A stretch of 61,638 bases of DNA, counting the filler, from Choristocarpus tenellus KU-1152 (Eukaryota > Protista > Phaeophyceae), in the NCBI GenBank assembly GCA_964200185.2. It is 13 parts of 13 records of this genome, joined end to end, with 100 filler letters (N's around TTAATTAATTAA, not from the genome) between each part and the next. Parts side by side here need not be neighbours in the genome. Positions count along the whole stretch, not along the records: positions 1 to 3,606 come from CAXNAD020018992.1; positions 3,707 to 9,117 come from CAXNAD020010870.1; positions 9,218 to 12,045 come from CAXNAD020024395.1; positions 12,146 to 18,774 come from CAXNAD020007715.1; positions 18,875 to 30,952 come from CAXNAD020001988.1; positions 31,053 to 36,990 come from CAXNAD020009365.1; positions 37,091 to 40,273 come from CAXNAD020021716.1; positions 40,374 to 44,691 come from CAXNAD020015136.1; 5 more parts are not named here. One strand, written 5' to 3'. The notes under the pieces were generated by a model. The model was given only the letters and a program-made list of their open reading frames with translations, searched no databases and was not told where the DNA came from. The translations under genes were made by a program, and so were the position numbers. This document shows, one piece after another, positions 1,604 to 58,400 of this stretch; position 1 is the first letter of the stretch; each line of letters opens with the position of its first letter.

Positions 1604-1777
1604 GCCTCAAAGTATCTGGGGGGGGGTCTACACCGGGGTGTCCATTTGGGCCCTTACAAGGAGAAGTGCACTTACATTGCCCATCCAACATATGCAACCA
1701 AATTCACCCAAAAATTGCGCCGTGGAAAAATGGCCCCGAATGGATAGCCGCCACCACCCCCCCAGATACTTTGAGCC
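1604..1777 (+). mobile_element. MITE subfamily A, full copy (174 bp)
   Basis: TIR gcctcaaagtatctggggg ... ccccccagatactttgagcc with a perfect 4-bp flanking duplication TCCC (1600-1603 / 1778-1781). Many homologous copies occur in the window. Confidence 0.9.
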
Positions 1778-3029
1778 TCCCACAACCCTAACCTTGCTGT
1801 ATCGATAAACATTTTAGGAGTGAAGCCACTATTTTTTTTGTCACATTGCGATCGATACATTCATTCAGATAACAATGTAGTATGTTGCTCCTTTAATTGT
1901 AGTATGCATCTCCTTACTACTTCTGGAGGTGAAGATCAGCAAAGAGTAGTCTGCCGAGCTAGAAAGGATAGAAAGCTCAACCATTACTAACTACTCTACT
2001 AATATACCCTCAATGGTGACCTCTCGGTTTTATACAGCAGACAACCAGTTAATTAACAGTTTTCCTTGTCAGAAGAAGATCAAAATTATTTTGATGGTGG
2101 TAAAGGTGCAATGTCGAAAGGACCCCTGGTTGCCTTGCAGCAGACGTTAATGGGTTGAGTTATCGTTTTCTCGAGTCATCACAGGCAGGGTGCAATTTTG
2201 TTGGTACCCCTCCTGGGGTTGGAGAAAAAAGGTTCCCAATAAAACGTGAGGCCATCACCAACTCCCGTCTTGATCAGAAATAACATCAGTAGTAACACTG
2301 ATGGTGTGTGGTGAGTAATTTAAGTCTTAGTGCAGGATGTGTGTAAGGAGTGAAATTCCAGGCCACCAACCTCAACAATCTCCTGTATCACCATTTGTGA
2401 GGCATACTGTTAGGTCCGATCAGTTGTTGGGGATTGCTTCCCAATTCCCTTCTGCTTTGAACCATCCCTTGAAAATCCCCACACCAAACACCTCAACTCC
2501 ACCGTACACAGTGTCGAGATCCTTGACATTCCTGCTCTATAGTTTAGACATAACCTGTTGCCCACTATAAATGAGAAGTTTTTGACAAAGGCGTATGGAA
2601 TAGTACAATAAATCAATCTCTATGTTTCTTGGACAACATGGCTCTCCTGTGCAAATTACCTTGGGAGGTAATGCTATTTCTCAGTAGTGAAGATAAGAGA
2701 GTATGAAGCCTCACACGACCCCCTTTGCTGAACATGAAAAAAGGAAAGGATGGTTGAAATTTAGAAGAGTGACCTTTTGTGTGTGGCGTCTTCTCATTGC
2801 TTGCTTAATATTTATTTGTGGTTCCTATCTGAGTCAACGGTCATGTCAAAGTTAGTTGAATGCAGAATAAATACCAATACATAATCCCATACATAATCTG
2901 GACGTACTATTTTATTAGTTACATCACATGGACTCAATTCAACCCAACAATCTCATATACACAAAATAAGGTACACCTCACTATTGTCCTATTTTGCACA
3001 CTCCCCCATGAGAGTGCAGGCAATGAAGA

Positions 3030-3600
3030 GTCGCTGGAACTCTCAAACCTAAAACAACTTATTGTGTACACTCCCCATTCTGTACACTTGCCCATGAAAA
3101 ATGGAAGTAAAAAGGCACCAGATTAGTTCAATTCTCACACATATCACATTTATCTTGCCAACGCAGTAAAAGAACGCAGATTACTTCAACTTTAACACAC
3201 GACATTCATCTAATCAACACAGTGTCTACAAAGTCTTCTACCTGCTCCTTGCGTAATCTTTTGGTCAAGATGTCTGCAAGTTGGAGTGCCGTGGGAATAT
3301 ATTTTACTGTAAAAAATCCTTTGCTAACATACTCCCTGGTGCATTTCAGCTTGATGTCGACATGTCTTGTCCGTCCATTAAAAACTTCGTTATCGCTGCT
3401 TGTATTGCTCCTCGATTGTCTCCATACCAAACCGTGACCCCTTTGAGTATGCCCAGCTCCCCCAGAATGCCTCTGAGAAATATTGCATGCCTCACCTCAT
3501 TCCATGCACCATCGCTGTCCATTCCGCCTCTGATGAAGATGTGGTTACAGCTCCCTGCATCTTGGATTTCCATGCAACAGGTGCTCCATTGATGATTATT
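3030..3600 (-). mobile_element. Ty1/Copia retrotransposon 3' remnant (frameshifted RNase H, 3' noncoding region, purine tract)
   Basis: Copia RNase H motifs DNRGAI and RTRHVDIKLKCTREYVSKGFFTVKYIPTALQLADILTK, split over two frames. The 3' noncoding part is homologous to 29150-29540. Confidence 0.85.
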
Positions 3601-3606
3601 AGATAC

Positions 3607-3706
3607 NNNNNNNNNNNNNNNNNNNNNNNNNNNNNNNNNNNNNNNNNNNNTTAATTAATTAANNNNNNNNNNNNNNNNNNNNNNNNNNNNNNNNNNNNNN
3701 NNNNNN
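3607..3706. other. Artificial contig-joining spacer N44-TTAATTAATTAA-N44 (first of 12; others at 9118-9217, 12046-12145, 18775-18874, 30953-31052, 36991-37090, 40274-40373, 44692-44791, 47724-47823, 50671-50770, 53847-53946, 57903-58002)
   Basis: The same 100-bp spacer occurs 12 times. TTAATTAATTAA gives stops in all six frames, as expected of a concatenation linker. Confidence 0.97.
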
Positions 3707-3745
3707 CTTCTCACTGCCCAAGACCGCCTGTGGATCGAAAACGCT

Positions 3746-6700
3746 ATGCCAGTTGCTTCCACAGCAACGGGATGGCTTGTGTCGCCTACGTCTCCCCCTG
3801 CGTTGCCCCCATACCAGCCTGCCAACAATGATGCGCTGGAACTTCATGCCAATGATGCTTCAGCGACCGGCGCCAAGCTTCGACTGGGGTGGATTGAACC
3901 TATCCCAGTCAACAAACAGCATGGCTGCTGCACGCACTTAGCCTGTGTGCAGAAGTTCACGGCAGATGGCGAGTCCTTCCTTGCACGCACCTTGGCCAAA
4001 GAGCAGGACATCATCCGGGCATGTGACAACCGCCACGATCGCAAGGAGATCGTTGGCAAGCGTGTACCTGTGATTAAGTTGGGACCTGGATGTGGATCTA
4101 TGCTCGCGGCTGGCATTCCTGTCTGCAAGAAGTTTTTCAAGGCATTGTTCGGGATATCCAATCATGTCATCGACGCCTGCAAAGGTACACCTAACGCAAG
4201 AGCATCCGCCAGCGTGGAGAGGTGGGTTTGAAGTATGTACACAGTGTCACTTGTACCAAGGTCTTGTTTCCCCCCTGCTTGAACACACAATAGTAGTCCT
4301 ATCTGAGAACAATGTGATCCGACCGTACTCACCCGGTTCACTTTGCAGTTACCATGCCTAGATGTCTGATATCCCAAGCTAGAGATCCCTCCAGCATGGA
4401 GTAATGACTGACCTATGTATGTATATGCACGTGCGATATGTTTTTCATGCTTCAACAAATCATCTCGTCCGACCGTCCCCACGCTGCTGCATCATGTACC
4501 ACACGCAAATATCTACAGAGTATATGATCCGCTGCTGGCATACGATACCTCTACAATTCCATCCCCCATCCCTCGTATCCACCTCCAACACATATCCCAT
4601 CCATTCATATACATACGTGCGCTACTACAACAGGAAGGGCACGAACAAAGATAAGGACATGGGTCCGAAGCGAGACCTGGTGATGTCCTGGATAGACTAC
4701 TGGGCTGATACATACGGGCAGTTCATGCCTCACAAGTCAACAATTGTGATCTACGCCGCGAACAAAGAGGTCGATTTTCCCCTTGGTTGTGGAGAGGTTG
4801 GCTGCACCCTGTTGTGTTGGAGTTAGATGCAAACCGTGTGAACCGGCAGCACGTAGAAAAGGTGGATCTAAGTAGTGTATTGAGGGGTAGATATTCATTA
4901 CCTTGACTGGTTTGATATTATGGTTAAAAGAACATGCCAAGATTCATACAAAGTGCTATCCTTTTCGTTTGCTATGTCGATATATCAATATTCATTATGA
5001 TACTCGTTGTCGACAATTTTACGTAGGAAGACCCAATAAATGTTATTTCAACACCGAGCACACATACTCTGCGGCCCCGGACCCGGTCTGAAATTGGTAG
5101 GAAAAGTGTGTACTTCGTATGTACAAAGCGCTTTGCGATGATGATGATGATGGTGGTAGATTCGCCTCCTTTGTCGCCTCTGCAAACGGCAGCAAGGCCC
5201 GAACCGAATGACGCTCATGGCAGATTTAATCAGATCATTGTATTTGCTCTTTCGTAACGCATGATGTAAGCTTGCTTGATCCTGTCTTCCGCGTTCTCAG
5301 TAAATTTATTTGTCAGTCCGCCTTCGAGAGATGTTGCAGGGGTGTTCTTCGAGTGTTCCTTCTCAATAACTCCTCACTTGCCCACACAACCAACATTTTT
5401 AATTAAGAGCTATACAAGGATTTTTGCAAAGAGGCAATACGAGTGTATCCTGACGACCCTTCCAAGCGGGTAAGCAAGGAGTACTTCCTCCGATTAGTCA
5501 GAGAGGACAAGCCCAACATCCGGGTGAGGGTAGGAGGTGAGTTTATGAAATGTGACATATGTGTCACGTTAAAAGAGAAGCGGCACGGTTGCGCCTGGTG
5601 TAAAATCCACCAACGACTCCACCGTCCTCGAGTCCATCGATATGGAGCTGTCAGACCATCGACAGGTAGGTGTCGAGCGTTAATTTTGCAACAAGGGTAC
5701 AGTGACAACATATCACCGTCATTTCCCTCCTAACCCTAAGTAAATCCGTGTCCTTTTGCGAATGAAGACTCCCACATAGGTGTTTATGGCAGCAGCAGTA
5801 GCCTCACTCACCACAAAACTTGCTGTTATTTGCTGCCCAAACACCTTGTAAGACAGACTGTTTCCTGATAGTGTACAACGGGCTATGGGAGAGACAGGTC
5901 ATGCAGCGGTCTTCCGGCCCGGTACGTGCGTACTTCCTACTATCCCGACAACTTGGTGTTTGTTTTGAACGCAGCAATAAAAAACATATCCCAATACTAA
6001 CATATCTTGATACCCAGACTACATTTTTGTTACTAACCAACATGATACGTGTTAACAAGCGGCATTTTTGTTTTACTCTGAGCAGATTTATTTGATTAAT
6101 TCACGTGATGTTGCTGTCCCCCATTCACCAGGTTATCAAAGCGGATCGGCTGGTCGTCGCCAACAGCACCAGCAACGCCATGCGGGCCAAAGCCGACGGC
6201 AAACCTCTCGGCTTCGTGTTCATGTCCGTAGACGCCGCGAACCAGACAGCATACGCCCTCCCAGCACTTTACCCACCTACCCACGGCGGTGACAGGTAAC
6301 CACACGCACGCACAGTCCATCCGACAAGAACTTTGTAGCCGCACGCGGAAGAGAGTAGAAGACCATGTTTTATCCTACGGATGAGTGCAAAGTCCCAAGA
6401 AATAATCACCAAAACAAATGCACATAATTCCACTACTACCTATTCAGTTCATCATGATGACCTTGCTTTACATGTTCCTTTCATTCATGTCCCCCTTATC
6501 AGGGGCTACTCCGAGCGCCAGAAGATCATGGCCGCACACGTCGAAGGCCAGTTCGCGGAGGTGTTCTTCACTCCTATCAATCTCGGAGGAGGTACGTACT
6601 GTAGAGTAGCGTAAGAGCTAATAATCAACGGGTAGTGGAGATCGCAGACATGTACATCAGCCGTATGGGTGTATGTCCTCTACATCGCATAAACAACTTA

Positions 6701-9117: not shown

Positions 9118-12100
9118 NNNNNNNNNNNNNNNNNNNNNNNNNNNNNNNNNNNNNNNNNNNNTTAATTAATTAANNNNNNNNNNNNNNNNNNNNNNNNNNN
9201 NNNNNNNNNNNNNNNNNCCCCCCTCTCCCACACAGATACTTTGAGTCAGCTGTGTATTCTTAGTCCTTAACACGATACAAGTTGGCCAAATGTACATCTG
9301 TGTTGTGCTGAGTGGGTGTTATCTATTGGTGTATGATTGAATTCCACAAACCCCACATCATCAAAGAATAATCTGGAGTGGACGAGGGGAGCGAAGATGT
9401 GATTGTGTTGATTTGGCATGTGTGATTTTCTTGAGAGATTAATTGCCTGTTAGGTATTATTAATGTAGAGTGTCACTGGTGGTTAATTAGGCAAGGGGTG
9501 ATATTGGTTGACTGTGCCGGTTTGGGTTCAATGCGTTGTTAAGTTGTTTGATGTATAGTGTTGTAGGGAGCTCAGCTTTGTCAAGATGCTCAACCTTGAG
9601 TCGATGTTTTTGCTGGGTGGTTGAATATGTTGCGAAGGTCTTGTATTGTTTTAATCAAGGGATTAGCTTAGCTTATTCTGTTGGGAACAACCTTAAATTT
9701 TGGTGTGCCGTGTATGATTATGCCCAAGGAGGCTGGTGTGGATTGTGCAGTGTTTGCTTGATGGTGAAACCTGCAGGAGGAAGGGATTGTTGCCCAGGCG
9801 TTCGAGAAGGGTTGCATGTATATGTTTGTTCAACAGTTCATGTTATTGTCCAATAGGAGTTTGTGTACCATAGCAACCCAGGGAACTGTTCTTGTGGAAT
9901 TATGGTGTATTGCTTTTTGTTCAGTGCCATTACCACACAGTTAGTAGTGCAATAAGTGCTACTACTCTTCAGTTATTGTATTTTTTTCTGTGTCGCACGT
10001 AAAATATATTTATGCGTTCTGTTACGTGGCGTATGTGCATGGGTAGTAGTGCTTATGCAGCCCTTTCTTGCATTCAGCGTCGAACTAGTCATATTTTTGT
10101 GCTATTGGTTCTGAATAACATATATTAAGAAAATGTTGCGCTTGTTGCATGGCATTTCCCCTCATACTTCCTGTTAGGTTTCATCCCTCTGACCATTTTT
10201 TTACAATATGTGGTGATGATAATAATAGGATCAATAATACAAGAAAGACAGCATGATGACCACACACAGCAGAAAAAACGAGAAACCAATACTCTTCGAT
10301 CCTCTGTTAATTTACACTGGAGACTATCAGTAATAGTTTCATTGTTCCTGGGGCTCTAGACATTTCCTTTTTTCATGATTATGGATCATGCTTTTCCTGT
10401 GAAGTGATTAAAATAATAATATTAAATAAGCCTCTCTTCATCTCCTAGTCACAGAGAGAGGGTGCATGTTTGCGCTCAAGAATTTCAACCAGTTCAGAGG
10501 AGGAATGGATGGATCTGATGGATCTCAGTGAAGGCAAAAAGGGTCTCACCAACCGACATTGTGCTTCCTAGAAGATCTTACCTCGAAGTATCAGTATCAA
10601 ATACGAAGTGAAACATGATGTATCTGCTGCAAAGGATGGCTGCACAAACTCATCTTCTAACAGACAAGAATGCATTGTTCTTGTTACTATGATTCTTGAG
10701 ACATAGCCCATCACAACCCATCCTGGACGCTGGGTTAACGAAATAATTGGGTCATGGAGAACCTCCTGTAATAATAAAGATAGTAACAATAAATAGTAAA
10801 AAATAGAGGCAATAGCCAACGGCACCATGAACATGCACTATACAATACTACGAGCAAAGATGGGAGACGCGTACTAAAAAAAACACACCAGATGACTGGT
10901 GTCCGATATCCTGCCTTGCACAAGAACTGATCCCCTACGTAAACCTTTTCACTTCAATACCGTTTGGAGTTGGCGATCGTATTATCAGGAAAAGAGCAAG
11001 TATTTCTCATTATTATTGATATCGAAAGAAGAAACAATGAAAGTGCTGAACGACAAGGCTCGTAGTGAGCAGTAATTGTGTACAAGATGTCCGCTGGCAG
11101 TACGACCAAGATCACAAACCTCCTCACGTTCGCAGGAAAGCTGGGAGAAGACTTCTATGCTTTCCAGTGAGGGCTCAGGCTACCCTTGGAGTTTACGACT
11201 GCGAGACTGCTCTCCATGGCCCCAACATTATCTGTGGGGGACCCATCTTGGCAGTGGATGTCGAATCATCAAATTCACCGAGCAATGAAGGAGACCAAGT
11301 GGCGAGAGCTTCAACGACACCTGTTCCGGTTGTGGCAAGCGATGGTGACCTGTGACTGGCCACTTCACGGGTCAAGAAAGCTTGGCAACTCATGCTGATC
11401 ATGCTGCAAGATCATGCCCTACATGTATTTATCGCGCCTGGCTCCCCCAAGTGCAGGGTGGGGCGCGCTTGATGGGTCGTTTATGCCCAAGACCCGCCAG
11501 GAGGCGAGGCGCATGCGCCAGGAACTTGACCGCCCTGCTCATTGATGGCAGAAAGGACCCTTCACCAGGGCTTAATGAGTTGTCTGGGTTGAAGACTAGA
11601 TAAGAATTGATGGGCGAGGTCATCGCCGAGGAGACTAAGGTGGTCACAATCCTTACAAGATGGGGGAGAACTACTCCCAAATTAAGAGCTTTATCGACTT
11701 CGGTGAAACCAAGACCGTGAAGCAAGTGAAAGATAATATGGTGGTGGCAAGGTTTAAGGACCTGCAGGCAACCAACATGGCTAAATCAATGGACACTACT
11801 CAGTCAATACATAGGATATATTCATCACTGGCTCTCCATCCTATTACCTTATCCACTGGTGGTATCTATAGTGTATTAGGAGCACTATCTACGAACATAA
11901 AATGACATCTGATTTGCAAAATGTTGGGGCTTAAAACGATGTAAATATATGTACCAATTGTGGGGATTTTTATTATATAAATACATAACTATATAACAGC
12001 CTCTCACCAAAATTGAGGATGGAGCATACTATGGAGGATGAGTTTNNNNNNNNNNNNNNNNNNNNNNNNNNNNNNNNNNNNNNNNNNNNTTAATTAATTA

Positions 12101-13656: not shown

Positions 13657-13697
<41 letters not shown>

Positions 13698-18774: not shown

Positions 18775-18987
18775 NNNNNNNNNNNNNNNNNNNNNNNNNN
18801 NNNNNNNNNNNNNNNNNNTTAATTAATTAANNNNNNNNNNNNNNNNNNNNNNNNNNNNNNNNNNNNNNNNNNNNCTTACAAACCACCCCCCCCCCCAGAT
18901 ACTTTGACTCTGCGGAAAGAGGCTTTGTGAGTTGTTACGTAGCCTTGTGTATGGAAAAGGGGAATGTCAATTTTGTATACACTATTG

Positions 18988-19245
18988 GAGTCGAAGCATC
19001 TTAGAGGGTAGAGTCGTGTCCGTTTGGGGAACCAAAATCCAATGTTTCGATTTTGATGTAATTTTGGCTATCGTGTTTGCAATGAAGTGTCAGTATCCTT
19101 GTTCCGGACACACCTTTTCATAACGTACATATTTTACCTACTTGGAAACATTTCGGATTAGGTAAAATGAAAAAAAAAACGTGTGAAGCCAAGCCCCAAA
19201 CGGACAAACAGGGCAAAACTCGTACCCACTCAGATACTTTCACTC
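18988..19245 (+). mobile_element. MITE subfamily C (258 bp)
   Basis: TIR gagtcgaagcatcttagaggg ... cccactcagatactttcactc, homologous to 51844-52101 and 53377-53635. No matching TSD (attg/tttt). Confidence 0.85.
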
Positions 19246-20800: not shown

Positions 20801-20983
20801 GACTCGAAGTATCTGAGGGGGTAGGGGGGGGGTCTACATCAGGGTGTCCATTTGGGCCCTGACCAGGAATAGTGTACCTACATTATCCATCCAACACATG
20901 CACCCAAATCACCCCAAAATTGCGACATGGAAAAATAGGCCCCAAATGGACAGCCGCCACCATCCCCCCTGATACTTTGAGCC
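20801..20983 (+). mobile_element. MITE subfamily A, full copy
   Basis: gactcgaagtatctgagggg ... cccctgatactttgagcc; internal homology to 1604-1777. No clear TSD. Confidence 0.88.
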
Positions 20984-21373: not shown

Positions 21374-21556
21374 GGGTCAAAGTATCTGGGGGTGGGTGGT
21401 GGTTTGTGAGGGGGCGTCCGTTTCGGTCAAACAACTCTTTTTTTTTGCTTATATTTCAAATCAGACACGTCCAACCAAATCACACCAAAAAAGTGAAAAT
21501 CGAACAAAAAGGGTGAAAAACGGACGCTGACACCTCCCCCCCAGATACTTTGACCC
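21374..21556. mobile_element. MITE subfamily B (same TIR core, different interior, 183 bp)
   Basis: TIR gggtcaaagtatctgggg ... ccccagatactttgaccc; flanks gctc/gcta (3 of 4 bases match). Confidence 0.8.
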
Positions 21557-27779: not shown

Positions 27780-29560
27780 CCTGAGCCTGAGCCACAAGAG
27801 CCCATCGATTGGAAACGACAAGATTCTTGCTTACGGAATGAGAAAAGCAATTGCTGTACCTGCCACTAGAGGAGCAAGACGTTAGCAGGAGCAGTAACTA
27901 AGCCTCTCACCACAAAGGAGAGAAGGAGCTAACCGTGGGGAGTCTGGGAGCACTCTAGCCCCTGGGACGATAAACTCGTGGAAGAGGAAACAGAAGGTCA
28001 GCGGAGGAGGCGGTCAAGGTACAACTGGTCAACGTACGGACGATATCACAACAGGATCCCCTACCAGAGAGAGATCAGGACCAACAGAAGATGTTTAAAA
28101 TGTGGTCTGATCAAGTATATTGGTCCTTGTTCTTTCGAAGGAATATGCTACAACTGTGGAGATAAAGGAGACCTTCAGATTGTTTGTCGCCAGAGGAGAG
28201 CGACATCGTCTAAACAGGCGGAGGAATTAGCTGGACATACTTCAAAGGGGTCACGACTTGGTATGGAGACAATCGAGGTGCAATTCTAGCAGCGATAACC
28301 ATCGGATAATTTCAATGGACGGACAAGGCAGTCACATCAAACTAGAATGCACCAGGGAGTATGTTAGCAGAGGATTTTTGAGGCATCCTGGGGGAGCTGG
28401 ACATACTTTCAAAGGGGTCACGACTTGGTATGGGACAATCGAGGTGCAATTCTAGGAGCGATAACCATCGGATAATTTCAATGGACGGGCAAGGCATGTC
28501 ACATCAAACTAGAATGCACCAGGGAGTATGTCAGCAAAGGGCTGCCTGCACAAGACTTGTAAGTCTGGGAAGTAAATAATATCTACTCCAGACCATCAAG
28601 AACCATCTTCTATATCAAAGGTACCCTGACGAGTAAGGTTGTCAGCAAAGTGCTGCCTGCACAAGACTTGTAAGTCTGGGAAGTAAATAAATAATATCTA
28701 CTCCAGACCATCAAGAACCATCTTCTATATCAGAGACCCTCACTGGGCCTGACACACGAGAATGACAAGCGGCAATGGAGAAGATGGAGCAACAGTGGAT
28801 GAAAGGAACATTCATAGAGGGAGAGGTTTTGACATGGGGAAGAAATCTTGTCAAGACTTATTCTGAATTTAAGATAAAGCCAATAGCTGAGGGGACTAGT
28901 GAACAGTTCAAGACCAGGTTGGTGGCACAGGATTGACTCAACGAGAGGATGTACAAGACATTCAATTATGATAGGCTTCATGGTTCTTGGGGAGTGAGTG
29001 CTACGTCCAACCAGAGAAACAGCAAAAGGGGGCTGGTTCAGATTTTTAACCATACACTAAGCGAGGGGTCATCATGGGACATGATTGTATATCACTGTGT
29101 TGGTGCATCTGAAGAAGCAAGTACAAGACTTCGTAGACACTACGTTGACTAGATGAATGACGTATGTTCGAGTTCAAGCAATCAGTGTTCTTTTACTGCA
29201 TTGACAGGATAAATACCATCTGTGTGACCCAAAGTATCTGGGGGGGGGGGGGGGGGGGGGCGCGGGGGGTAGGGCGGGTCTACACCAGAGTGTCTATTTG
29301 GACCAAAACCAGGAAAAGTGAACTTTCATTATCCATCCAACGTATGGAACCAAATCACCCAAAAATTGCGATATGAAAAAATTGGCCCCAAATGGACAGC
29401 CACCCCCCCCCCCAGATAATTTGAGCCTGTGAAAGTTGAGCCGATTTTTTTCCCCTCTTAATTCCACTCTCATGGGGGAGTGTGCAGAATGGGGAGTGTG
29501 CACAATAAGATGTTTTAGGTTTGAGAGTTCCAGTTGGACAACTTCATGTCGTTGAGGCCC
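27780..29560 (+). mobile_element. Heavily deleted and rearranged Ty1/Copia element (gag zinc knuckle, duplicated RNase H fragment, RT fragment, 3' region)
   Basis: CYNCGDKGDLQIVC knuckle (~28145-28190); RNase H piece HIKLECTREYVS present twice (~28222-28380 and ~28390-28540); RT motif FKTRLVAQ (~28907-28930); 3' region homologous to 3030-3230 (-). Confidence 0.75.
29226..29427 (+). mobile_element. MITE subfamily A inserted in a Copia remnant
   Basis: gacccaaagtatctggggg ... cccagataatttgagcc; flanking tgt(g) is duplicated. Confidence 0.88.
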
Positions 29561-30772: not shown

Positions 30773-32772
30773 TGACAGTTTAGAATTGATAACTGATGTT
30801 TTTGTACCTACACAGACCCAATGTCACCATTGATGTTAAGTATATTTATTACTTTGTTTTTGAGAGAGTTAGCAGAAGTTTGTTTCTTTCTTCAAATTTT
30901 CAGAGAAGTAGATTCTAAGGGTGTATAGTATCTGCGCAGCAAGGGAGAGTGTNNNNNNNNNNNNNNNNNNNNNNNNNNNNNNNNNNNNNNNNNNNNTTAA
31001 TTAATTAANNNNNNNNNNNNNNNNNNNNNNNNNNNNNNNNNNNNNNNNNNNNTAGTGAAAGTGCACTTTTCCTGGTTTTGCCCCAAATGGACCCTCTGGT
31101 GGTGTAGCCCCCCCCCCCCCCAGATACTTTGGGTCTCCAAACTAGCCCCAGTATCGTCAGCCCACTCAATCCGCTGCTTCCTTACTTGCCACTTGCTGAT
31201 GAGCCTACCATTGGGGAAGTGAGCAATGTTGTATGCTCTCTGGCCAACCAAAAACGCTGTGGGCCCTGATGACCTTCCTATGAAACTCCTGGGAACTGGG
31301 ACTTGACGTAGATCCCCTTCCCCTCCAGGTCTTCCATAGCATCATTCTTGATGTGTAGCGGTCAGAGGAGGCCGTTCGTAGATAGTGCTACTAATGCACT
31401 ATATATTCCACCAGTGGATTAGGTAATAGGATGGAGAGCCAGTGATAGATATATCGTATGTATTGACTCACTAGTGTCCATTGATTTTGGTGTCATGTTC
31501 AAGATACACTTGCTATACTTAAGACAAGTAGATTAATGATTCATAGTAAATTAGTGTGGGCGATAACACCCCACAAAGTGTTCGTAGAGATTGTGATACG
31601 ATAGGTAGGAAGCAACAGCCCCACCATATTATTTATTCCGGTGACTTGTAGTAGTGATGTACTAGGGAGATTTTGTTGATGTAGTAGGAGACGCTACATG
31701 TACTGCGAAGGGCCCTGCCATTTCATGGACCGTGGGAGACGCAACATATTATTGCCAAGGACTTGCAGGAGAAAGTACCTAAGGATGCTTCCACATGAGA
31801 CTACAATAGTACAGATGGGTAGAGTAGTGACTTTTTATAGTACCTACACACCCAACGAACTTGATTATGGATCTATCTCTTTTGCCATGTTGGTCCTATC
31901 TCTGGGCCAAAGTAATTGAAAGGTAGACAAGTTTGGATTTTAAGCACCCCGAAAATGGCAAAAGACGCAATTTTGCAAAATTGGAGAAAGAGCGGAGCAA
32001 ACTACCTGATGTTTGTGTGTGGTTTGCACTGGGGCGTCCGTAATGATCCTGACAAGGTGTTAAAAAAATTGTGGAATTGCTTTCTTCAGTTAGCCTTTGT
32101 TGAAGTGTTGTCTCACTTTGTTTATGGAAAGGGGGAATATCAATTTCTTTTAAGTTATTGTGAACATGAAGCAATGTGAAATTGAGTGTATTGCACAGTA
32201 CAATAAAGATGGTCCAGAATGCAAAGGGTTCAAAACCTTACAGTATACTGTAGCGTATATACGGTTTTGTTTTTTTGACACAAATGCGATAAGGTATAAT
32301 AATGCCGTTGTTACACATTTATTTGAACATTATTAGTGTAATCATCTTCATTTATACAACACCAGTTTTTCTTACTCATACTCTTCCATCGCATAAACCG
32401 AAACCCTATAACATACCATTTATCGGTTAAATTGATAATGAGTGTTCTTCAAATAAGTATGAAGGAAAGATTGAACTTTCGGCTCCTTAACAATTCGTTA
32501 GATATATTAGATATATCCATCAAGAGTTTGAAAGAAAAATAGGTTTTTGTTGAGAGTATTACGTGGAAGAATTGATGTTAGTTCTACCAAGTGCATAATA
32601 ATGACGTCATAAACTCATTTTTTCTAAAGGATCTTGTTCACAAGAACATTACTCAAAACAGATTATTCCACCACATCTACATATCGTCCTTCTTATGATA
32701 AAACCGGAAGAATAGCTGAATTGGGATTGGACCTACAACCCAACAGATAGGTGGCTACACAGGAGTTTTGTC

Positions 32773-35034: not shown

Positions 35035-35292
35035 GAGTCAAAGTAAATGAGAGGTATCCAGGGTTGCATATTTAGGATGCTTACAATAGCGTACAAAGAA
35101 ATCTTTTTTCCAAAATGCGCGTATAAGGTATTTTCTGAATTGTGTCCAAAATTTTCAAAAATAGAGAAATCAATGCTCCCAAGCCAAAATTAGTACTTCA
35201 TATAAGAGATATGGGTGAATTGCGAAAGGTTTTAAGAATGGCTTTAAATGCAAAACCACCGAAACCTAGGTACCTCTCGTTTACTTTGTCTC
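35035..35292. mobile_element. MITE subfamily D (258 bp)
   Basis: TIR gagtcaaagtaaatgagaggtatcc ... ggtacctctcgtttactttgtctc with a perfect TSD TTAT (35031-35034 / 35293-35296). A second copy lies at ~58140-58400. Confidence 0.88.
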
Positions 35293-37208
35293 TTATTCTG
35301 GGATGTATGGATCTATCGGTAGAATGTAGAAGAAGAAACAGGAATTGCTGTGGTGATTGACACTCGATTTCCTCCACATGGTACATTCTTGGACCTCTAA
35401 CAGTACATCGAGGACTGCAGTGTGCTTCAACAGATGTCGTGTATATATGAGACACACAGTTGTGTCTCACCTTGAGCAATGTGTACACTGTATTGTGAGA
35501 GAGGAAACTCCTTGCTAGCGCATCCTTAGAATCTCTGAGGTGAAAATGAACTGCTGGGAGTTCAAACTTTGAATTGAATGGGGTTTCAAGGATGATTGTG
35601 GTTTAGAAAATTGAGCCGTCGAATTATCATTCTTGTCTTCATATTTTGTTTTGGTTTGTTGATCCTCATGTAATACTTGCAACAAGAAATATTGATGAGT
35701 AGGACAAACGGAGTCAATCCAAAGGTTGACTACTAGAAAGAAAGGTGATACTGCAATTTCATCATTGTAGCACCTGATGCAGAGGTACACATGTTTTTTT
35801 GCACTATATGCCTCTCTGACTAACCCCTGCGGAATCCACGCTATTTTCATGTTTTCTGTGGACACCAGAAGCCGCCCAAAACGAAGGTATTGCTACAGAA
35901 GAGAGACAAGAAAAAGTGGCCACAATTGAGCAAGGGGTCATTTGTACTGTGTAGAATGATGTGATGTTTGCTGATTTCTGGGGATCCTTTCAATGCAAAC
36001 GTATGTATCTCTTGGTTACTATGACTAGACAGATACCCATTTGTCGCTTGCTCTTGTCTCTAAGATATACTACAACTCAACTAGTTTGGTACGTGCACTG
36101 CTTCTTACACATTAGGTTCAGTCTTTTCATTACCCTTCCTCCGTCGAAGCCAGATCGTCTTCACTGGACGCCACTGCTTTGCAAATGAAGCAACAAAAGT
36201 ATGATTTTCTACCAGGCTATACCTCACACTTATGTTAGGAGTTTCATCTCATGGTACTCCCCATGTGACTAGAATCGAAACGAAAATTTCTACCAGAAGA
36301 TAAGATCGGATTGGTGAAGGTTTGATAGGCAGGGAGTGTGATCTGACGAAACTAAATTTGCAAATACATACCTCGAACTAGTAGGTTAAAATACTACAAA
36401 GTGTAACTTAGCCTTGAGGAAACACCTCTCGACCCTGAGTTTGTCTCTCTGATATAAAAAAATAATAGTAAAACACCTTATCAGGAAATCGTTCATTGAC
36501 TTGAAAATCTTCAAATTCCCCATATCGTTGCTTTCTGGAATTTGTATTTTCTACAATCTGAAGGGTGATTTTGCAATTTACCTGGACAAAAGTTCATCTC
36601 CTCTTCTACAGTCACAGTCTCCAAAAGGGGTTCAAAAACATTTCAGGCGTGGGAAGTGATGTGTAGGGTGTTCGGAAAAAAAAAACTCTGAATGCTCACA
36701 AGGACCGAAACTAACCTCTCTCTAAGATTACTTTCGAATTGACAACAGAAACGAATCGGGCAGGCTTAATGGTAGCCTGTAAGATGTAGTTCTAATGTCT
36801 CAATATTGCCTTAGTGTCTTTTTCAGACCTTTATCAATTACTGTAAGCAAAACCCATTCGTGTGTTCGACGTTTTGTGCAACCCATCATGCCTTTTTGGA
36901 ATGGCCCTCAGAAGTTGTTAGCATCCAATCTGATAATTCAACTGATTTGATAACGGCAGTTGCTATTGAAGACCCAAAGTATCTGGGAGGNNNNNNNNNN
37001 NNNNNNNNNNNNNNNNNNNNNNNNNNNNNNNNNNTTAATTAATTAANNNNNNNNNNNNNNNNNNNNNNNNNNNNNNNNNNNNNNNNNNNNCCCCACAGAT
37101 ACTTTGGGTCCAAAACACTCACACATCATCTCAATTTCAAACCCCACCCGTGATGTAAACGCCTAACAAGACGATGTCGACTCAACCCCCGCCACACCGG
37201 ACCTTGTA

Positions 37209-38483: not shown

Positions 38484-40413
38484 CTTTCTGACAACCCCCC
38501 TAGAGCAAGGAGGGGAGGGGGAGGGGGAGGGGGGGGGGGGAAGTGGTGTGATACAGTTGATACCTCACATTGGCAATGAGTAAGAAACGGGGCAGAGGGG
38601 AAGATGGCACGAAGTAGTAGTTCCTTCATTGACAAAGGGACTTTTCGCAACAACTATTTTTGTAAGGACCTACCTTCCTTGGAGGGATTGGAAGCGTTGA
38701 ATACACAGATGTTGAAAGTCATTTCTCGAAAATTGCACACATTGCACTTCCCAGCGATTCACAAGCCAGAAAGAACACAACCCCCACCCCCCCTCCCCCC
38801 CCCAAAAAAAAATCTTGCACATAAAATAGAAGCCACAATGGATAAATGAACTGAAATAACTTCGGAGCGCTCTCGAAGAGAAAATAAGCACCACCTTTCG
38901 ACATGTGCTGCCTATTCATACACAACTAGGGAGTCACCAGCACCATATCCCTCCTAGTGCTGCTGCATTGCTCAAGGTCTCGGATTCAACTTCCTGCCTA
39001 GCCAATCTACACACGCAGCCTTCAAAAAGTTGCACTGGCTTCATCAGAAAGACCAAAACAATAAGCCGGGTTCATTGCTAAGGACAGTCTAACGCAAACC
39101 GCACACAACTTGTCTCACGTGTAGCAATACAAATTACACCCACCATCGTCTCCAAGAGTGCTCCTCACCAGTACTGAGCGCCGTTACTTTTCCAAGTCTG
39201 GTGGAAACAACACCACCCGAGAACAGACAGTAACAACAGATGAATACTCATCAACACAATAGGTCCCATAACCACCGCCTCCTTAGAAAACACGAAACGC
39301 CTCAAAACAGATTTTCGCATCCAACAACCACTTCCTCCGTTGCACACACGCGCACACACATGGTAGCACCAAAAATTCAAGGGCATGTAGAACATTGCGT
39401 GGGATTCAAACGCACGCAGATTACAGGTGCCCATGACACTCAGCACACCTTCATCATTGGCACGTCCAAAAGACCAACCACCGATCGATTCTCCTCCAGA
39501 GTCCCCCGGCTCTTAGGCCAGGGTTTTGGGATGCCCCTTCAATCACCCATTCATTGACAACGACGTAACTTGCCTCAGGTAGTTCCTCTTACCGAACTCC
39601 CCATTCTGCAACAAAACTCACAGGTCGAGCTACCTCCAAGGTTGCACTTACACACTAGAGTTGAGCCTTAATGTCCCAAACATGCCCCCAATGCTTGACC
39701 CGACCCGACCCTCTGCCCCCATGGATATTTCACCGCGGATTTCTGGGCAACACGATTGATTACCTTCAGAAGAGAAAGATGCTTACTGTCCGTGCAGCTT
39801 CACACCGTTGCTCGGGAGCTTCTACTTGCTTGGGCAGTCTCTCATAGCTGTAGCCCTAACTTCTTAACTTCCTAGCCCTAACCTGCGTACCAAGTCAAAT
39901 ATCGACCAATTTCCCCCTCCTTTCAACATTGGCAGCGTCACCAGAACCAAGGACACAACTAGAGGAGACTTTAAGCTTTAAAGCTTCTACTCTATTTATC
40001 CCCACGACCGTCTTGAGCCCTACCCGCAGTGCTCATTGATAGAGCTCCTTGGGAGTGGTGGAAGACTTAAACCAGGGTCTGTGTTTGGCCAATCAAATCA
40101 AACCGACCAAACCTCCTGCCGTCATATACCAAAAGCACGTACTGCCGATGTAAATGTTTTCACCGATTCCAGGGGGGGGGGGGGGGGGGGGGGAAAGAGG
40201 GAGAGGGGGGGGGGGGGGGGGGGGAGGGGGGGGGGGGGGGGGGGGCGCCGAAAAAAAAAAAAAAAAAAAACAANNNNNNNNNNNNNNNNNNNNNNNNNNN
40301 NNNNNNNNNNNNNNNNNTTAATTAATTAANNNNNNNNNNNNNNNNNNNNNNNNNNNNNNNNNNNNNNNNNNNNCCAAATGGACGCGGCTCTACCCTCTAA
40401 GATACTTTGGCTC

Positions 40414-50810: not shown

Positions 50811-52456
50811 CGTGTGGTTTCATCATACTCCTATATACTGTTTCTTAATGACCTTCACCATCATCTCAATGGACCCAAACCGCTCCCCCATCACCCGGCA
50901 TTTCAAAGACCTGAGGAGAAGCACAGGTCCATGATATTGAGGTCAGGGAAGTTGGATGGCTGCGTCATAAGCCTAATCGACCCCCCATCAGTCGTCCCTG
51001 CCCCTGACAAGATTTTTTTGTTGCCCTTGCCCACGTGGGGGGTAGCACCGTCTTGTTGAATGACAACGTGCTTCCCCTGCAACCAAGGCATCTTGTTCTT
51101 GATTGCAGGTAGTAACTCCTCCGTGTACCAACTCCTGTACCACAAATGGTCTAAAGTACAGTCCTGCTCATACACATTCCCCTTTTTATGGTTATTGCTT
51201 GTTCTGTCAGCCGTTTTTGGTGCACACACACACCAAACACCAAGCTTTCCATCAAATCTATTAGCCGAATCTAGGCGGGCATTGGCCGAAATGATCATGG
51301 ATTTGGGGATATGACTCTTGTGCTGCACAGTAGGGGATCCTGGAAAGTAGCTATCATCCTCATGAGGAAATACTCCCACCCTTTCCCCATCAACCATCAC
51401 GTAAAACCAGGTTTCATCCACAAGGATCATATTCACCATGGAGACGTACACACCACATTTCCGGTCCACTTGATCTCAACCAAAGTCCGTTCTCCGTACC
51501 TTTTGCCACGATTTAAGCTTGGGATTGATCCAACGGCGATTCAGCATGGTCCCTATATCATTCAACCACCTTTTGATGGTGCTCGTGCTATAATTCAGCC
51601 CCTTGGCAGCCATCTTCATTGTCACCTGACGCACTGTGGATGACCGATTATCGGAGTTGATACTATGTATTGTGGCCATCTTGGTCGGTGTGAGCTCCGA
51701 AGGCCGCCCACTATGTGCAACCACCCCTAAGTCAAGCGTGTGGCCACGGGCGAGCTGATCGGTGACGTCCTCCCAGAGCCTTCGCATGTAGCGCTCAGAA
51801 ACTCCAAACTCCGCTACAAGGGCCGGCCCAACATGTCGCAGCAGAGCCGAAGTATCTCAGAGGGTATAACCGCGTCCATTTGGGGACCAAAATCCAATGT
51901 TGCGATTTGTATTTAATTTTGGCTATCGTGTTAGTTAGGAAGTGTCAATATCTATGTTTCGGACACAGCTTTTCATAACGTATACCTTTTATCTACTCCT
52001 AAACATTTCGGATTAGGAAAATATCACTAAAAAAACGTGGGAAGCCAAGCCCTAAAAGGACAAACAGGGAAAAACTCGTACCCTCTAAGATACTGTCACT
52101 CAGCAGTTTATGTTCACCAGGGGCCATTGCGAGGGCGTGCCGCACTGCAAGCGCAACCCTGGTGTTCAGGGACACTTGTGCATCCTTCCTACGCGGGGGG
52201 GTCGATGGGGGGGTTGCCATGCTGACGTTCTGACCCTCCATGTGCCCAGTTCTAGCCTCAAAATCACCCCAAAAGACCCCTACTTTGACGACTTGAGGCA
52301 CCTCGAGTTTGTATCTGATGATCCTCGACCCCCATCTTTTCTGAAAAGCTGAAATTGTCAACCCGATTTCATTCTGTGGGGTTATTGTTCGATTCGGCGC
52401 CGTTGTCGCCGGCTAGCCCAGATGTTTCACATCACAAACCTATGGCACAGAGGTAG
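50811..52456 (-). mobile_element. Tc1/mariner element of the plant/oomycete-type (DD39D-like) lineage; transposase pseudogene (start ~52220) with its 5' TIR ending at 52456
   Basis: Motifs SGRP, VDETWFY, HKSHIPK, FDGKLG, QQDGATPH and QPSNFPDLNIMDLCF. In-frame TGA at 51476-51478 and a frameshift near 50910. The minus-strand terminus TA|CTACCTCTGTGCC resembles the Stowaway TIR CTCCCTCCGT. Confidence 0.88.
51844..52101 (+). mobile_element. MITE subfamily C inserted in the mariner transposase ORF
   Basis: gagccgaagtatctcagaggg ... ccctctaagatactgtcactc with a perfect TSD AGCA (51840-51843 / 52102-52105). Confidence 0.92.
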
Positions 52457-53376: not shown

Positions 53377-53635
53377 GAGTCAAAGTATCTTAGAGAGTAG
53401 AGCCGCGTCTATTTGGAGGCCAAAATCCAATGTTGCGATTTTGATGTAATTTTGGCTGTCGTGATTGTTAGGAGATGCCAATATCCTTGTTCCGTACACA
53501 TCTTTTCATAGCGTATACATTTTACCTAATCGGAAATTTTTTGGAGGAGGTAGTATGTCATTAAAAACCCGTGGGATGTCAAGCCCCAAAAGGAAAAACA
53601 CGGCAAAACTCGTACCCTCTAAGATACTTTCACTC
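53377..53635 (+). mobile_element. MITE subfamily C (259 bp)
   Basis: gagtcaaagtatcttagagag ... ccctctaagatactttcactc with a perfect TSD CTAC (53373-53376 / 53636-53639). Confidence 0.92.
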
Positions 53636-54011
53636 CTACGCACATTATATTGTGGCCTACTGTTTGGGTAAGACCAACCAACACCTCTCATGAAACGAAG
53701 TCTGACCTTTGAATCACGGCCACAGTAGTGAGATTTTCCCGCCAGAAACATCGGGTTTGCATGATCCATATTGACCAACCTATATTTATAGTCAACCTTG
53801 CCCAGCTCACTATTATGTGTGGAGAAAACCAAGTGTTGGTGGTGGTNNNNNNNNNNNNNNNNNNNNNNNNNNNNNNNNNNNNNNNNNNNNTTAATTAATT
53901 AANNNNNNNNNNNNNNNNNNNNNNNNNNNNNNNNNNNNNNNNNNNNGTGTTTTTTTTGTGGTTGCGGGGGTGATAAGTGCTTCCTGTTTTTGCGGCGAGG
54001 GGGCGGTAGTT

Positions 54012-54237
54012 AGGGGGGGGGGGGGGGGGGGGGGGGGGGTTCTACACCAGGGTGTCCATCCATTTGGACCAAGATAAGGAAAAATGCATTTACATTATCC
54101 ATCCGACATATGCAACGAAATCACCCAAAAATCGCGACATGAAAAAATTGACCCCAAATGGACAGCCGCCACACATACCCCCAGATACTTTGAGCCCCAA
54201 ATGGACACCCTGGTGTAGACCCCTCCCCCCACCAGAT
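54012..54237 (+). mobile_element. MITE subfamily A copy abutting an inverted partial copy
   Basis: A-type body ending agatactttgagcc (54196), followed by ccaaatggacaccctggtgtagacc, the reverse complement of the A 5' part. Confidence 0.8.
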
Positions 54238-56059
54238 TCCATATCACCCATCACCTCAGATTGTGCTGCAGCAGCATTTACTGGTTGGCATTTAATAACA
54301 GAGGGGCTCCAGTTCCAAATTTGCCAGTTGTTTCCAACACAGGGATTCCAGTTCCAAATTAACCAGTTGTTTCCAATGATTGATCGACATATCTCCTAGT
54401 TTCTTTTGGGAATGGATCCCCAAAAGTCTTAAGACATAGTCAGAATCAATATATGTCTGACCAAATCAGATTATATCTCTGACACATCCTAAAATATATG
54501 TGTCCCCAGTTCTGAACTCCCTAATAACAAATGTGATCAATTTATATCCATGTTCTCTTTGAAAGTGTCTGTCCACAAGGTCGTAGGAAACAATCTTGGC
54601 CAAATTGTGTCTGACCTGATCCAAGTATACACTTGTGCATTCTGAACCAGACCTTCAAAGCCATCGAGTATATACCTATGATTAGGCCTACAATTTATGG
54701 ATCCTCTGTTCCAAAGACTTGGAAGTTCTATTCTATGTCTGCATCGTAAGTGTTACCAAGGAATAGACTCACAACCCCTATACGATTCATTACCTACTGG
54801 GTATCTGCTTATTGCCTGTCCTATACCCCCCAAGCACAAAGCGTACTCCAGACTGATAGTATGCAAAACAGGGAATAAACAAAAGAGATGAAGAAAAACA
54901 AGATTGGAGAATGAAAACAAAAAATATATATATATATTTTTTTAAAGAATGGGAGTGTGAGAGATTCTTAAAAACAAAGACGAAAAATAAAGAAATAGTA
55001 ATTAAAAAACATCATCGAAAGCACTTGCAAATAGAACAGAAAAAATGTTCATTTTTGTTGACTACACCTATGTAACCTATATACAACTGGTCCACTCTGA
55101 AGTACGGCTTCTTGGTTCCAACTTTTGCTATTCTATATACCTTTCAGTGACTGTGTGTCAACATCGATACCCTATTCTCTTGTTTTGACGTACCTAACTA
55201 ATCCTCACCTTTTCGTTCACGCATACAGTTTTTACCTATTGGGACGGCCTTTGGAGAAGCGACCGATTTCGCTCTTGTTTAAGTCCTTCCAGTCTCCATC
55301 GTTAAACCTTACCCTCCAGTAGGGTGACTTGAGGTCTAAAAACTGTGCCTGTGTACCACTAACCTCTTCCTCTCTCGTCTATCCACGACTTCTTGACAGT
55401 GGTACCTATAGGGAAAAGGCGCAATGCATCCTCTCGGGACAAGAGGTTTCTTGGACGAAGCCGTCATTTGGGGGTGGTCTTGCGTGAGGAATGTAAAGGT
55501 TCCAGAGGGTGTGAAAAACATCCAACTGCAGTGTGGTGGAGCTGTCCATTGCCTCTGTTTCTGTTATCCGGTCTGACAACTATCCATTCTGATACTTTCC
55601 TCCTTACTCCCAATGCCACACATTGAATCTTATCGTGACAATACCGCCTTTCTGCCAGCTAGTGTATACAATGGTGTGCCTACCACTATTCTGTTGTTAG
55701 ACCTAGGTTAGATTCCCACACTATTGTTGAAGAGCTCAGCGTGTGTAAAGGCTCATCGCCCGAAGCCGCTGGTTGAGTTACACAGTGAAACATACACTGA
55801 ATTATTTATTGCCTGCTGGGTGCCCAATATCACTAGTATTGACCCACCATACCACTGGTACTGGCCCACCATACCGTTATGCACGATACTGCTTTTTGTT
55901 GTATCATCTCAAAGATAAATGTACATAAAACCTATGTTATATACTTGTATCAGCACATATAACAGAAGGATGACACTATGTTATTCGACAGGGGCCGATT
56001 GCGGAAAAACAAGTACTAACTCTGAAACAATCACACCAATAAAAAAAACTAAATATATG

Positions 56060-57432
56060 TCATTAAAGAACTCATTGCGTTCTTTATGGCATTTTCCAAC
56101 TGACTATAAGAAAGAGTGCATTCTCTCACCAGGATTTGAACTCACTCAGTTGCTGTCATGTCTTCCTGAGGAACTCGAAGGAGTTGTCCGGTGACGCTCG
56201 GGACTTCCACTGTAGATGAGTCGCTTAGGAGATCGCTGTGTGTCCTAAGAGAGTCAGACAGCACTTGCTCAAGAAGTTCAATTCGGAAAGGGGTAAGGGC
56301 ATCACTACAAGGACGTGATGTATTACGATAGTGGACACGATCTTTGGGTAAGGCCCACGATCCTCCTTGAACCCTCGCTAAAGCCTTGGTAAGAGCGTCA
56401 GCGAAAAAAACGGGATTGTTTGACATGGTTGAGGCAGAGTTATCTGCAGGTACTCCGAGAAAGACGTGGCCATTGGCAGGGTCCCCGAGTTTCTTATGAA
56501 TGCGTTCCATGGTTTCAACACAATCTTGATGCTAATGCATGTCAAGGTTGCGAGAGACTCTGTCTCGCTGCTGCCTACTGGATTATGACTCATGTGACTC
56601 AGCTCGTGTACGCAACTCATGAATTTCTCTTCGCAGCTGTGCCTCAACCTCTCTGGACCAACGTACCGTACTCAGGCAATTCCTTCGAGATTGTCTGGGT
56701 GATACAGACCTGTGTGAAGAATAATAATCACTGGTCCGACGGTGACGACACACACGGTGAACGAGTGTGGCCTCTGCATTCTTCCCTGGTCCTCCATCTG
56801 TGTCGACGAGAGCGCCTGTCCCGGGATCTCGACCTGGAGCGAGATCTGCCACGAGTGGAAGAACGAAAACGAATGCGCTCTCAGCGCCTGCCTCGACATT
56901 CAGCAGCGTGGACATGGCTGCGACCAGAATTGCCTTGAGTTGTGGTACTGGGCTGGAATCTCTCGGAATCATCGATTCTTTGGAGAATCTGTAGGTCGGA
57001 GGCGACCCCCACTTCTCACGAATACTGTGAGCCAGACATGTCTGCGAACCTGGGAGATAAAGGGCAAGATTGTAACCAAAAAAGAACAGATATGTGTGAG
57101 TAAAGGAACGCAGAACAATTGACTACCTAGGCAGCGTCTCGACCCTGGTGATCAAAGACCACTCTTTTTATGACTATAGGCAAGTGATGTGGCGATCGGA
57201 GGCCACTCGTTTTACAGCTAGAGAAGGGCGATTCCCTCAGAGCCACAGAAGCCCTCACACCCATGAAGACGACGAGCCCAAGGAGGGAATCCCGCAGACA
57301 ACGAATGAAGACCACAAACCCAAGTGGGAAAAGAAGAGAATCCAGGCGGGCGTAGGAAGCTACAAAGAATCCTAAGTGTTGAGGTGAATACTGAGTATTC
57401 TGTCCAGTTTGAAGGAGGCAGTAGGACCTCCA
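56060..57432 (-). mobile_element. Internal region (PBS, leader, frameshifted gag-like ORF) of the same LTR family as 16416-18774
   Basis: Translations MSTLLNVE.GAESAFVF and PVFFADALTKAL.RVQGGSWALPKDR are nearly identical to ORF 16435-17262. PBS-like TGGAGGTCCTACTG at 57432-57419. Confidence 0.82.
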
Positions 57433-57848
57433 TGTTACAGGCGCCCCTCAGAGCTCACCTCCACAGGATGTACAACTCAAATCCAATTCACGGATTAACG
57501 AATGTCAGCTCAGCAGAACAGGGGTACTCTCGAATGAATCAATTAGCACAAGGAAAATATGTTTATCAATATCAGTAAGAGAGAATGAAAAAGGTGGGGC
57601 CTCTTTAGACCCGAACTGAGCTGTTTGGAGCCGTTTTTAGGATCTCGTATCATCATTTATCGCTGGGGCTTCTTTGGTTTACAGACATTGGAATATATCT
57701 GAGAACCCTTGCGACTTTCCCGAGTTACAGAATTTATTCTGCAACTTTTTAGCAAATCGGAGTTCCCCTTTTGGGGTTGCCCATGCACGTACGCTGCTCA
57801 CGCCGGTTAAAGCGCGTGAAGAAATACTCGCGCTATTTGCCTGTAACA
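57433..57848 (-). repeat. 5' LTR (416 bp) with a perfect 10-bp terminal inverted repeat TGTTACAGGC...GCCTGTAACA
   Basis: TG...CA ends and the 10-bp inverted repeat; on the minus strand it is immediately followed by a TGG-initiated PBS. Confidence 0.8.
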
Positions 57849-58002
57849 TAAGTGCACTTTTCCTGGTTTTGGCCCAAATGGACACCCTGGTGTTGATCCC
57901 CCNNNNNNNNNNNNNNNNNNNNNNNNNNNNNNNNNNNNNNNNNNNNTTAATTAATTAANNNNNNNNNNNNNNNNNNNNNNNNNNNNNNNNNNNNNNNNNN
58001 NN

Positions 58003-58400
58003 GTGTCCACTTGGAACAAAATCAGGAAAAGTGCATTTAAGTTATCCATCCGACATATGCAACCAACTCACCCAAGAATCGCGACATGAAAAAATTGACC
58101 CCAAATGGACAGCCGACACCCCCCCAGATACTTTGAATCTCAAACTAAACGAGAGGTACCCAGAGTTGCATTTCAAGTGTGCTGACAAGTATGCGCAATA
58201 AAACGTATCTTTTAGACCAATGCATGTAGGATATTTTCATAATTGTGTCGGAAAATTTCCAAACTATTGAGAAATATACGTTCTCCAGTCAAACTTTGAA
58301 CTTCATCCCCAGAAATATGGGTGAATTGCAAGAGATTGCAAGACAGACTTAAAATGCAAAAAATACCCAAAAACTGAGTACCTCTCGCTTACTTTGATCC
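58003..58400 (+). mobile_element. MITE A (3' part, to 58139) adjoining or inserted into the left TIR of a MITE D copy (58140-58400)
   Basis: cccccagatactttgaatc is followed directly by tcaaactaaacgagaggtaccc ... gtacctctcgcttactttgatcc. Confidence 0.8.

Follow-up and report, generated by a model that had tools for sequence, protein, structure and literature searches.

Which enzymes move the short repeats that crowd a 61,638-nt stretch of the brown alga Choristocarpus tenellus KU-1152 (GenBank assembly GCA_964200185.2), and how long are the target-site duplications (TSDs) that they leave? The stretch, in the following the window, consists of 13 stretches joined end to end; the located ones are whole small contigs of the genome assembly searched (G000; 164 Mb, 27,310 contigs). 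A preliminary description had recognised about 20 miniature transposable elements with inverted repeats (MITEs) of at least four subfamilies, which it assigned to one Sola-like lineage with 4-bp TSDs, possibly undescribed in this group. According to our analysis, Sola2-type elements likely drove a large radiation of these MITEs, whose TSD is a variant with two lengths.

The elements, their coordinates, the family lengths and the common terminal motif were all found again. Families A to D stand, but the window count, full and partial copies together, rises to 26 (A 14, B 2, C 5, D 2, E 3; Table 1), including a fifth family, E, that had been missed. Together they make up 6.1% of the window without filler. 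All five families end in G(A/G)(G/C)YCAAA(G)TA, with terminal inverted repeats (TIRs) matching over 23-32 bp within consensuses of 180 bp (A and B), 258 bp (C) or 259 bp (D and E), and copies are 86-95% identical to their own consensus. The similarity is 68% between D and E along their length and 75% between A and B in their right halves. Being short, non-coding, TIR-bounded, flanked by TSDs and present in high copy, families A-E all qualify as MITEs. A first look at the alga's own genome returned 2380 (A), 2369 (B), 4128 (C), 1962 (D) and 810 (E) candidates, figures that are not copy numbers, as only 40 per family query were scored and B likely overlaps A. Since eight of the 13 stretches start within a MITE, many of the partial copies represent assembly breaks; three short pieces at contig ends (9218, 36971, 37091) were placed in A by motif only. 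Besides, C copies frequently lie in or beside other C, D or E copies (L073, L086, L199, L013, L257, L418 and others), which points either to some local preference or to an effect of the sampling. An element of about 700 bp with D-like ends (L051:5409-6111) has an interior that matches window positions 48631-48982.

The TSD of these MITEs is 3 or 4 bp, both about equally common in our sample. This sample comprises 249 end-to-end copies with unique flanks from 471 fetched sequences (1.75 Mb), drawn by similarity to the window copies and not at random, the terminal foldback F being excluded; as a control, flanks were re-paired at random (shuffle). An exact 3-bp TSD was present in 86 copies (shuffle mean 6.7, maximum 14) and an exact 4-bp TSD in 82 (mean 1.2, maximum 6), with 84 copies fitting 3 bp only, 80 fitting 4 bp only, two fitting both and 83 neither. 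Only these two lengths are enriched: 2-bp TSDs are at chance level (26; shuffle mean 17.0, maximum 29), and 5-, 6- and 7-bp TSDs occurred 0, 0 and 1 times among the 249 copies. A related tally on 261 copies gave the same pattern (88 with 3 bp, 81 with 4 bp). The enrichment of 4-bp duplications in genome flanks, which the preliminary description had proposed as a check, therefore exists, but 4 bp as the TSD does not hold, since 3-bp TSDs are as frequent. Within the window, its four exact 4-bp TSDs (TCCC, TTAT, AGCA, CTAC) are confirmed, and the two A copies that seemed to fit either length carry exact 3-bp TSDs (AAA, TGT).

As many MITEs lie within other repeats, empty sites can be read. They were found for 77 of the 261 copies; 58 passed a filter of at least two matches with 70% agreeing, where matches may be overlapping loci, and 19 were dropped. 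Three bases are duplicated in 23 of these 58 cases, four in 29 and another number in six; the empty site agrees with the TSD call in 20 of 21 3-bp copies and in 18 of 23 4-bp copies. Neither G nor C is favoured next to 3-bp TSDs, and these flank bases together with the empty sites rule out the 3-bp class as a boundary artefact. At the C copy at 51844, the mariner-type reading frame is continuous if four bases (or one) were duplicated, not three.

The target follows the pattern W-N-W or W-N-N-W (W, A or T), with A/T frequencies of 0.92 at both edges of the former and 0.81 in the latter against a background of 0.55. Among 84 3-bp TSDs, first and last bases were TT in 21, AT in 20, AA in 18 and TA in 12, i.e. 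the outer bases are independent A/T. This bears on the idea that the 3-bp insertions were made by a PIF/Harbinger (or Zator) transposase reading similar G-rich ends and the 4-bp ones by Sola2. Harbinger genes do exist in G000 (50 matches), Ectocarpus Harbingers are listed in PMC12477816 supplement 1 with 3-bp TSDs and the termini GGGTC/GACCC, and Zator also yields 3-bp TSDs according to PMC10045372. Nevertheless, we regard this division of labour as very unlikely: the outer bases lack the palindromic TNA or AWT form seen in Harbingers, the main Harbinger family in G000 has other ends (those of a second family were not reached), a Zator motif had no match in 271 sequences, and the 4-bp class does not fit Zator. 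As a candidate master, the main Harbinger family was rejected, as it starts TTA|GGCCATCTCC and not with the MITE end (8 boundaries).

For the source of mobility, we turned to large elements with Sola2-type genes. The pattern HGK...DG.G, taken from supplement file 2 of PMC3627910, where Sola2 is aligned, gave 73 matches in the genome search versus 3 for a control, and among 30 translated motif loci one (L280) was a chance match. The translations carry the Sola2 series DFS, WSDGCGSQFKN and HNFFASCHGKSLSDGVG in at least three subfamilies and, compared by eye, match the published alignment in the same file. The transposase core has 517 relatives at E 0.001 (HMMER) that keep the Sola2 motifs, the two named ones being predicted proteins of a brown alga; a homology search with longer proteins gave no match at E 0.001. 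Its predicted fold is a DDE integrase/transposase domain (pLDDT 73), which compares with the Metnase transposase domain at Z 11.2 (root-mean-square deviation 3.5 over 166), a PDB sequence search gave 0 matches, and the nearest cluster in the ESM Atlas is 38% DUF7869.

At least two of these master subfamilies bear MITE-type ends. In the strict test, the S2-2 5' end, GGG(T/C)CAAAGTATCT, was seen with 17 different flanks and its complement, the 3' end, with six; in another tally, S2-2 ends were found at 13 of 30 loci, two of which are the same place. One locus (L338) links the 5' end to the Sola2 motif across 9.07 kb, another (L408) links it to the front part of the gene, and five (L337, L344, L451, L455, L456) connect the motif with the 3' region, which lies 3.6 kb further on; this adds up to an S2-2 size, pieced together from contigs, of about 12.6 kb. 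The S2-1 3' end is a 207-bp foldback with a MITE-type terminus and six different flanks. Across the master ends, 26 of 29 adjoin A/T (p 7e-5), as the MITE TSD rule predicts. Apart from these ends, S2-2 has accessory frames of 169 and 354 aa on the strand opposite to its transposase (L338:4806-5315 and 6200-7264), and in L349 and L456 further exons follow the Sola2 core downstream, with the motif C-x-C-x-x-C and an extended C-terminal portion that may include chromatin-reader-like domains.

The right end of S2-1 (L333, L334, L343, L345, L348) forms a near-perfect foldback with two inverted copies of the terminus, owing either to duplication of the end or to capture of a foldback MITE; the 207-bp foldback was also seen once as a free-standing copy with a 4-bp TSD. 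The MITEs could also be Academ elements whose likeness to Sola2 ends stems from old MITEs captured at Sola2 termini, the more so as AcademX TSDs are given as 3 or 4 bp (PMC10045372) and the S2-1 foldback is complete and resembles a captured MITE. However, at each S2-2 end one terminal repeat passes directly into sequence specific to the element, with unrelated flanks in 17 and 6 copies, and a MITE half cannot repeatedly land at the same two spots, which makes this explanation extremely improbable.

A direct comparison ties A and B to the transposase-bearing Sola2-type elements by common ends, a link we consider supported. In BLAST, i) A consensus 84-180 matches the S2-2 5' end (79% over 97 bp), ii) A consensus 4-56 matches the S2-2 3' end (89% over 53 bp) and iii) B consensus 1-55 matches the S2-1 3' end (91% over 56 bp). 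A Sola2-type DDE transposase thus lies between the same termini in S2-1 and S2-2, hence for A and B; C, D and E would be linked to Sola2 by terminal motif and TSD pattern only. Sola2 termini have the form GRG...CYC, which fits B, C, D, E and the masters (GGG/GAG...CCC/CTC), and the A consensus has GAC...GCC. The assignment to non-autonomous Sola elements is supported, being tied for A and B to Sola2-type elements through common ends; its original ground, a fixed 4-bp TSD, is in part wrong, and "one lineage" needs softening, with at least two master subfamilies bearing these ends and no master found for C, D and E in the 471 sequences.

Taken together, we consider it probable that the MITEs, which share ends with the large Sola2-type cut-and-paste elements of this genome, were moved by the transposases of these elements; because 3-bp and 4-bp duplications are about equally common, these enzymes likely cut with either stagger. 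The transposase would bind the terminal repeat of about 25 bp and a subterminal (C/G)TCCATTTGG-like motif, excise the MITE and join each end beside A/T. By general DDE chemistry, the spacing of the two strand-transfer attacks would have one base of play, and the TSD would equal the stagger between them (discussed in PMC10045372). Family A is likely a deletion derivative of an S2-2-like element and B probably derives from an S2-1-like element; C, D and E presumably use the same or sister transposases.

Both lengths occur in every family and in near-identical copies, so one flexible enzyme is our best reading. In the sample, drawn by similarity to the window copies, the 3-bp:4-bp counts are 23:6 in A, 7:6 in B, 42:60 in C, 10:4 in D and 2:4 in E, 3-bp C copies are 3-5% away from 4-bp C copies, and L074 and L072 differ by 3.1% with different lengths. 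The main rival is a set of several Sola2 subfamilies, each with a fixed stagger of 3 or 4 bp, that cross-mobilise the same MITEs. At least three Sola2 subfamilies are available for this, the 3:4 ratio differs between A and C (Fisher p 0.0003) and across families (chi-square p 0.0014), and 4 bp predominates among the youngest, closest C copies (18 of 24 rows), as two enzymes would also give; these last two points also count against a single enzyme. Yet no family is restricted to one length, both classes obey the same outer-W rule, and a 3-bp Sola2 enzyme would itself be a variant. Nor does TSD length follow the C phylogeny: nearest neighbours agree in 58 of 102 cases (shuffle mean 52, p 0.19), and a dependence on C sublineages was rejected as not significant (30 changes on the tree). 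Several fixed enzymes thus appear unlikely to us. We would put an even chance on the fuller proposal of a distinct Sola2 lineage, in which a single transposase with 3- and 4-bp staggers sets each end on A/T, end sequence or enzyme version tunes the ratio, and the resulting MITE burst covers several percent of a brown-algal genome.

Further observations weigh against the proposed movement by Sola2-type transposases. The assignment of the masters to Sola2 is drawn from motif reading and a predicted fold, and a Pfam scan of the core and 13 relatives gave no family at cut-off. Every transposase copy seen is broken by stops or frameshifts. None of 40 fetched regions contains both ends of a master, so that the master TSD could not be read, and the contigs walked for S2-1 stop short of its 5' end, which leaves the right arm of B without explanation. 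C matches the S2-2 end weakly (80% over 45 bp in BLAST), D and E have no BLAST match to the master ends and agree with them just in about the first 11 bases, and the 471 sequences contained no long element whose ends are specific to C, D or E; clustering of orphan ends for C, D or E masters also found none.

A high-copy Sola-type gene in the window itself, the intron-rich DUF7869 gene at 3707-9117 (E 1.5e-18, family of at least 10 kb), is another conceivable master. Its element has the right end ...CTGTT with unrelated flanks in about 20 of 26 rows and is therefore a MITE target, not a master; the terminus resembles Ectocarpus Sola1-1 (AACCG-CGGTT), not the MITE end, and MITEs sit inserted within it. 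We give this candidate next to no credence. The Sola1-like family (G000:C10870; L052, L058, L192, L196, L243-L270) has a multi-intron transposase in high copy, an extra gene region upstream on the opposite strand, 173-bp subterminal repeats and AACAG...CTGTT termini, and it resembles the giant Sola1-1_Ec32. A Sola1-like terminus (AACAG...AAAATTGAGGATGGAG) also closes stretch 3 at 11995-12045.

Sola elements were reportedly defined by Bao et al. in 2009. In PMC3627910 and its supplement files 1-3, Sola2 is described with 4-bp TSDs, and its members (e.g. DFa-2, PPa-1) share with our masters the core motifs DF...SDG...Q(Y/F)KN...HGKS..DG, short TIRs, G(A/G)... starts, A/T-edged TSDs and, with additional genes, a large size (12.9 kb in DFa-2). 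In contrast, the TSD described there is 4 bp (AWWT in Dictyostelium), while here it can be 3 or 4 bp and the inner bases are free, and family A ends in GAC/GGC. As 4 bp is not the only TSD length, we file the elements as a Sola2-like variant and not as a textbook member. "Undescribed in this group" was too strong for a brown alga, since Ectocarpus has a curated Sola2 family, although its termini differ and the lists of PMC12477816 include no MITEs for it. This Sola2-1_Ec32 is likewise a brown-algal Sola2, with a 26-bp imperfect TIR (supplement 1-2), but compared by description it differs in its GGCGG-CCGCC termini, 4.6 kb length, 4-bp TSD and 48 copies; the same lists hold no non-autonomous Sola2 family, in contrast to the 12.6-kb masters and five MITE families here. 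Sola2 MITEs have been counted in insects (PMC5199201). AcademX shares the 3- or 4-bp TSD (PMC10045372), but has another transposase with a nuclease partner, which is not the gene found between MITE-type ends. PIF/Harbinger and Tourist-like MITEs share G-rich starts (GGGTC, GACCC in Ectocarpus) and a 3-bp TSD (PMC12477816), but have TSDs of TWA/TNA/AWT and no 4-bp class, and the Harbinger sampled here has other ends. IS481EU has more than one TSD length in one family, although lengths there vary by helical turns (about 4, 15 and 25 bp; PMC10045372) and here by one base. Full-text searches returned no report of 3-bp or mixed Sola2 TSDs, a weak negative because Repbase Reports and subscription journals lay outside their coverage.

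Table 1. MITE copies in the window (positions along the window; TSD, target-site duplication)
Position	Strand	Feature	Remark
1604..1777	+	MITE A, full	exact 4-bp TSD TCCC
9218..9247	.	A-type end, truncated by contig start	motif only
18875..18910	-	MITE B left end, truncated by contig start	
18911..19349	-	MITE E	interrupted by C copy
18988..19245	+	MITE C nested within E	no exact TSD
20801..20983	+	MITE A, full	no exact TSD
21374..21556	+	MITE B, full	4-bp flanks GCTC/GCTA differ at one base; the left-hand 55 bp match the S2-1 (Sola2) right end
29226..29427	+	MITE A, full	exact 3-bp TSD TGT
31053..31135	-	MITE A left part, truncated by contig start	
31904..32238	-	MITE E, degenerate	
35035..35292	+	MITE D, full	exact 4-bp TSD TTAT
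36971..36990	+	A-type left end, truncated by contig end	motif only
37091..37110	.	A-type end, truncated by contig start	motif only
40374..40413	-	MITE C left end, truncated by contig start	
44792..44814	-	MITE A end, truncated by contig start	
47489..47668	+	MITE A, full	exact 3-bp TSD AAA
50771..50810	+	MITE A right end, truncated by contig start	
51844..52101	+	MITE C, full	exact 4-bp TSD AGCA; within Tc1/mariner-type transposase gene
53377..53635	+	MITE C, full	exact 4-bp TSD CTAC
54013..54237	+	MITE A without left end	adjoining inverted partial A
57849..57902	-	MITE A internal part, truncated by contig end	
58003..58139	+	MITE A right part, truncated by contig start	
58140..58400	+	MITE D	adjoining A copy
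58726..58971	+	MITE E, degenerate	
60596..60839	-	MITE C, old copy	

Besides the MITEs, the window contains several other repeats and genes. The Tc1/mariner-type transposase at 50903-52412 (minus strand; HTH_Tnp_Tc3_2 E 6e-4, VDETW and QQDGA motifs) is broken and interrupted by the C MITE. Remains of a Gypsy-like long terminal repeat retrotransposon, with gag-, protease- and reverse transcriptase-like frames by eye, lie at 41800-44691 (plus strand), along with a 668-bp tandem duplication at 40412-41521. Degenerate Copia-like pieces (by eye) are common to 2648-3473 and 28229-29623, one of them split by the A MITE at 29226; a 900-bp repeat, 82% identical, with a coding-like frame and no Pfam match occurs at 16414-17287 and 56059-56936; and an unclassified repeat family of 200-300 bp at 30274-30771 and 31562-31809 is tandem in stretch 5. 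Genes are represented by a sodium:solute symporter gene at 23343-25730 (minus strand; PF00474, E 3e-9), likely a DUR3-type urea transporter, and, judged by eye, a likely Mpv17/PMP22-like host gene at 32716-33722.

To our knowledge, little biochemistry has been described for Sola transposases, and no solved Sola transposase structure was among our structure matches. In this context, thousands of natural insertions with known masters amount to a dataset of target sites, on which flexible target capture could be tested. In four non-random sequence sets, 3-8.5% consists of these MITEs, against 0.04% of the genome for Sola2 in Ectocarpus (listed in PMC12477816), and the MITEs break the assembly. 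TSD length is a main rule for classifying non-autonomous elements, as outlined in PMC4455052; since two lengths arise about equally often from the same set of ends, this rule would misfile half of the copies. If a single two-stagger Sola2 transposase is indeed at work, the length of the TSD would cease to be a constant character of Sola, and G-rich MITEs with 3-bp TSDs that have been placed in Harbinger/Tourist in algae and protists could belong to Sola2.

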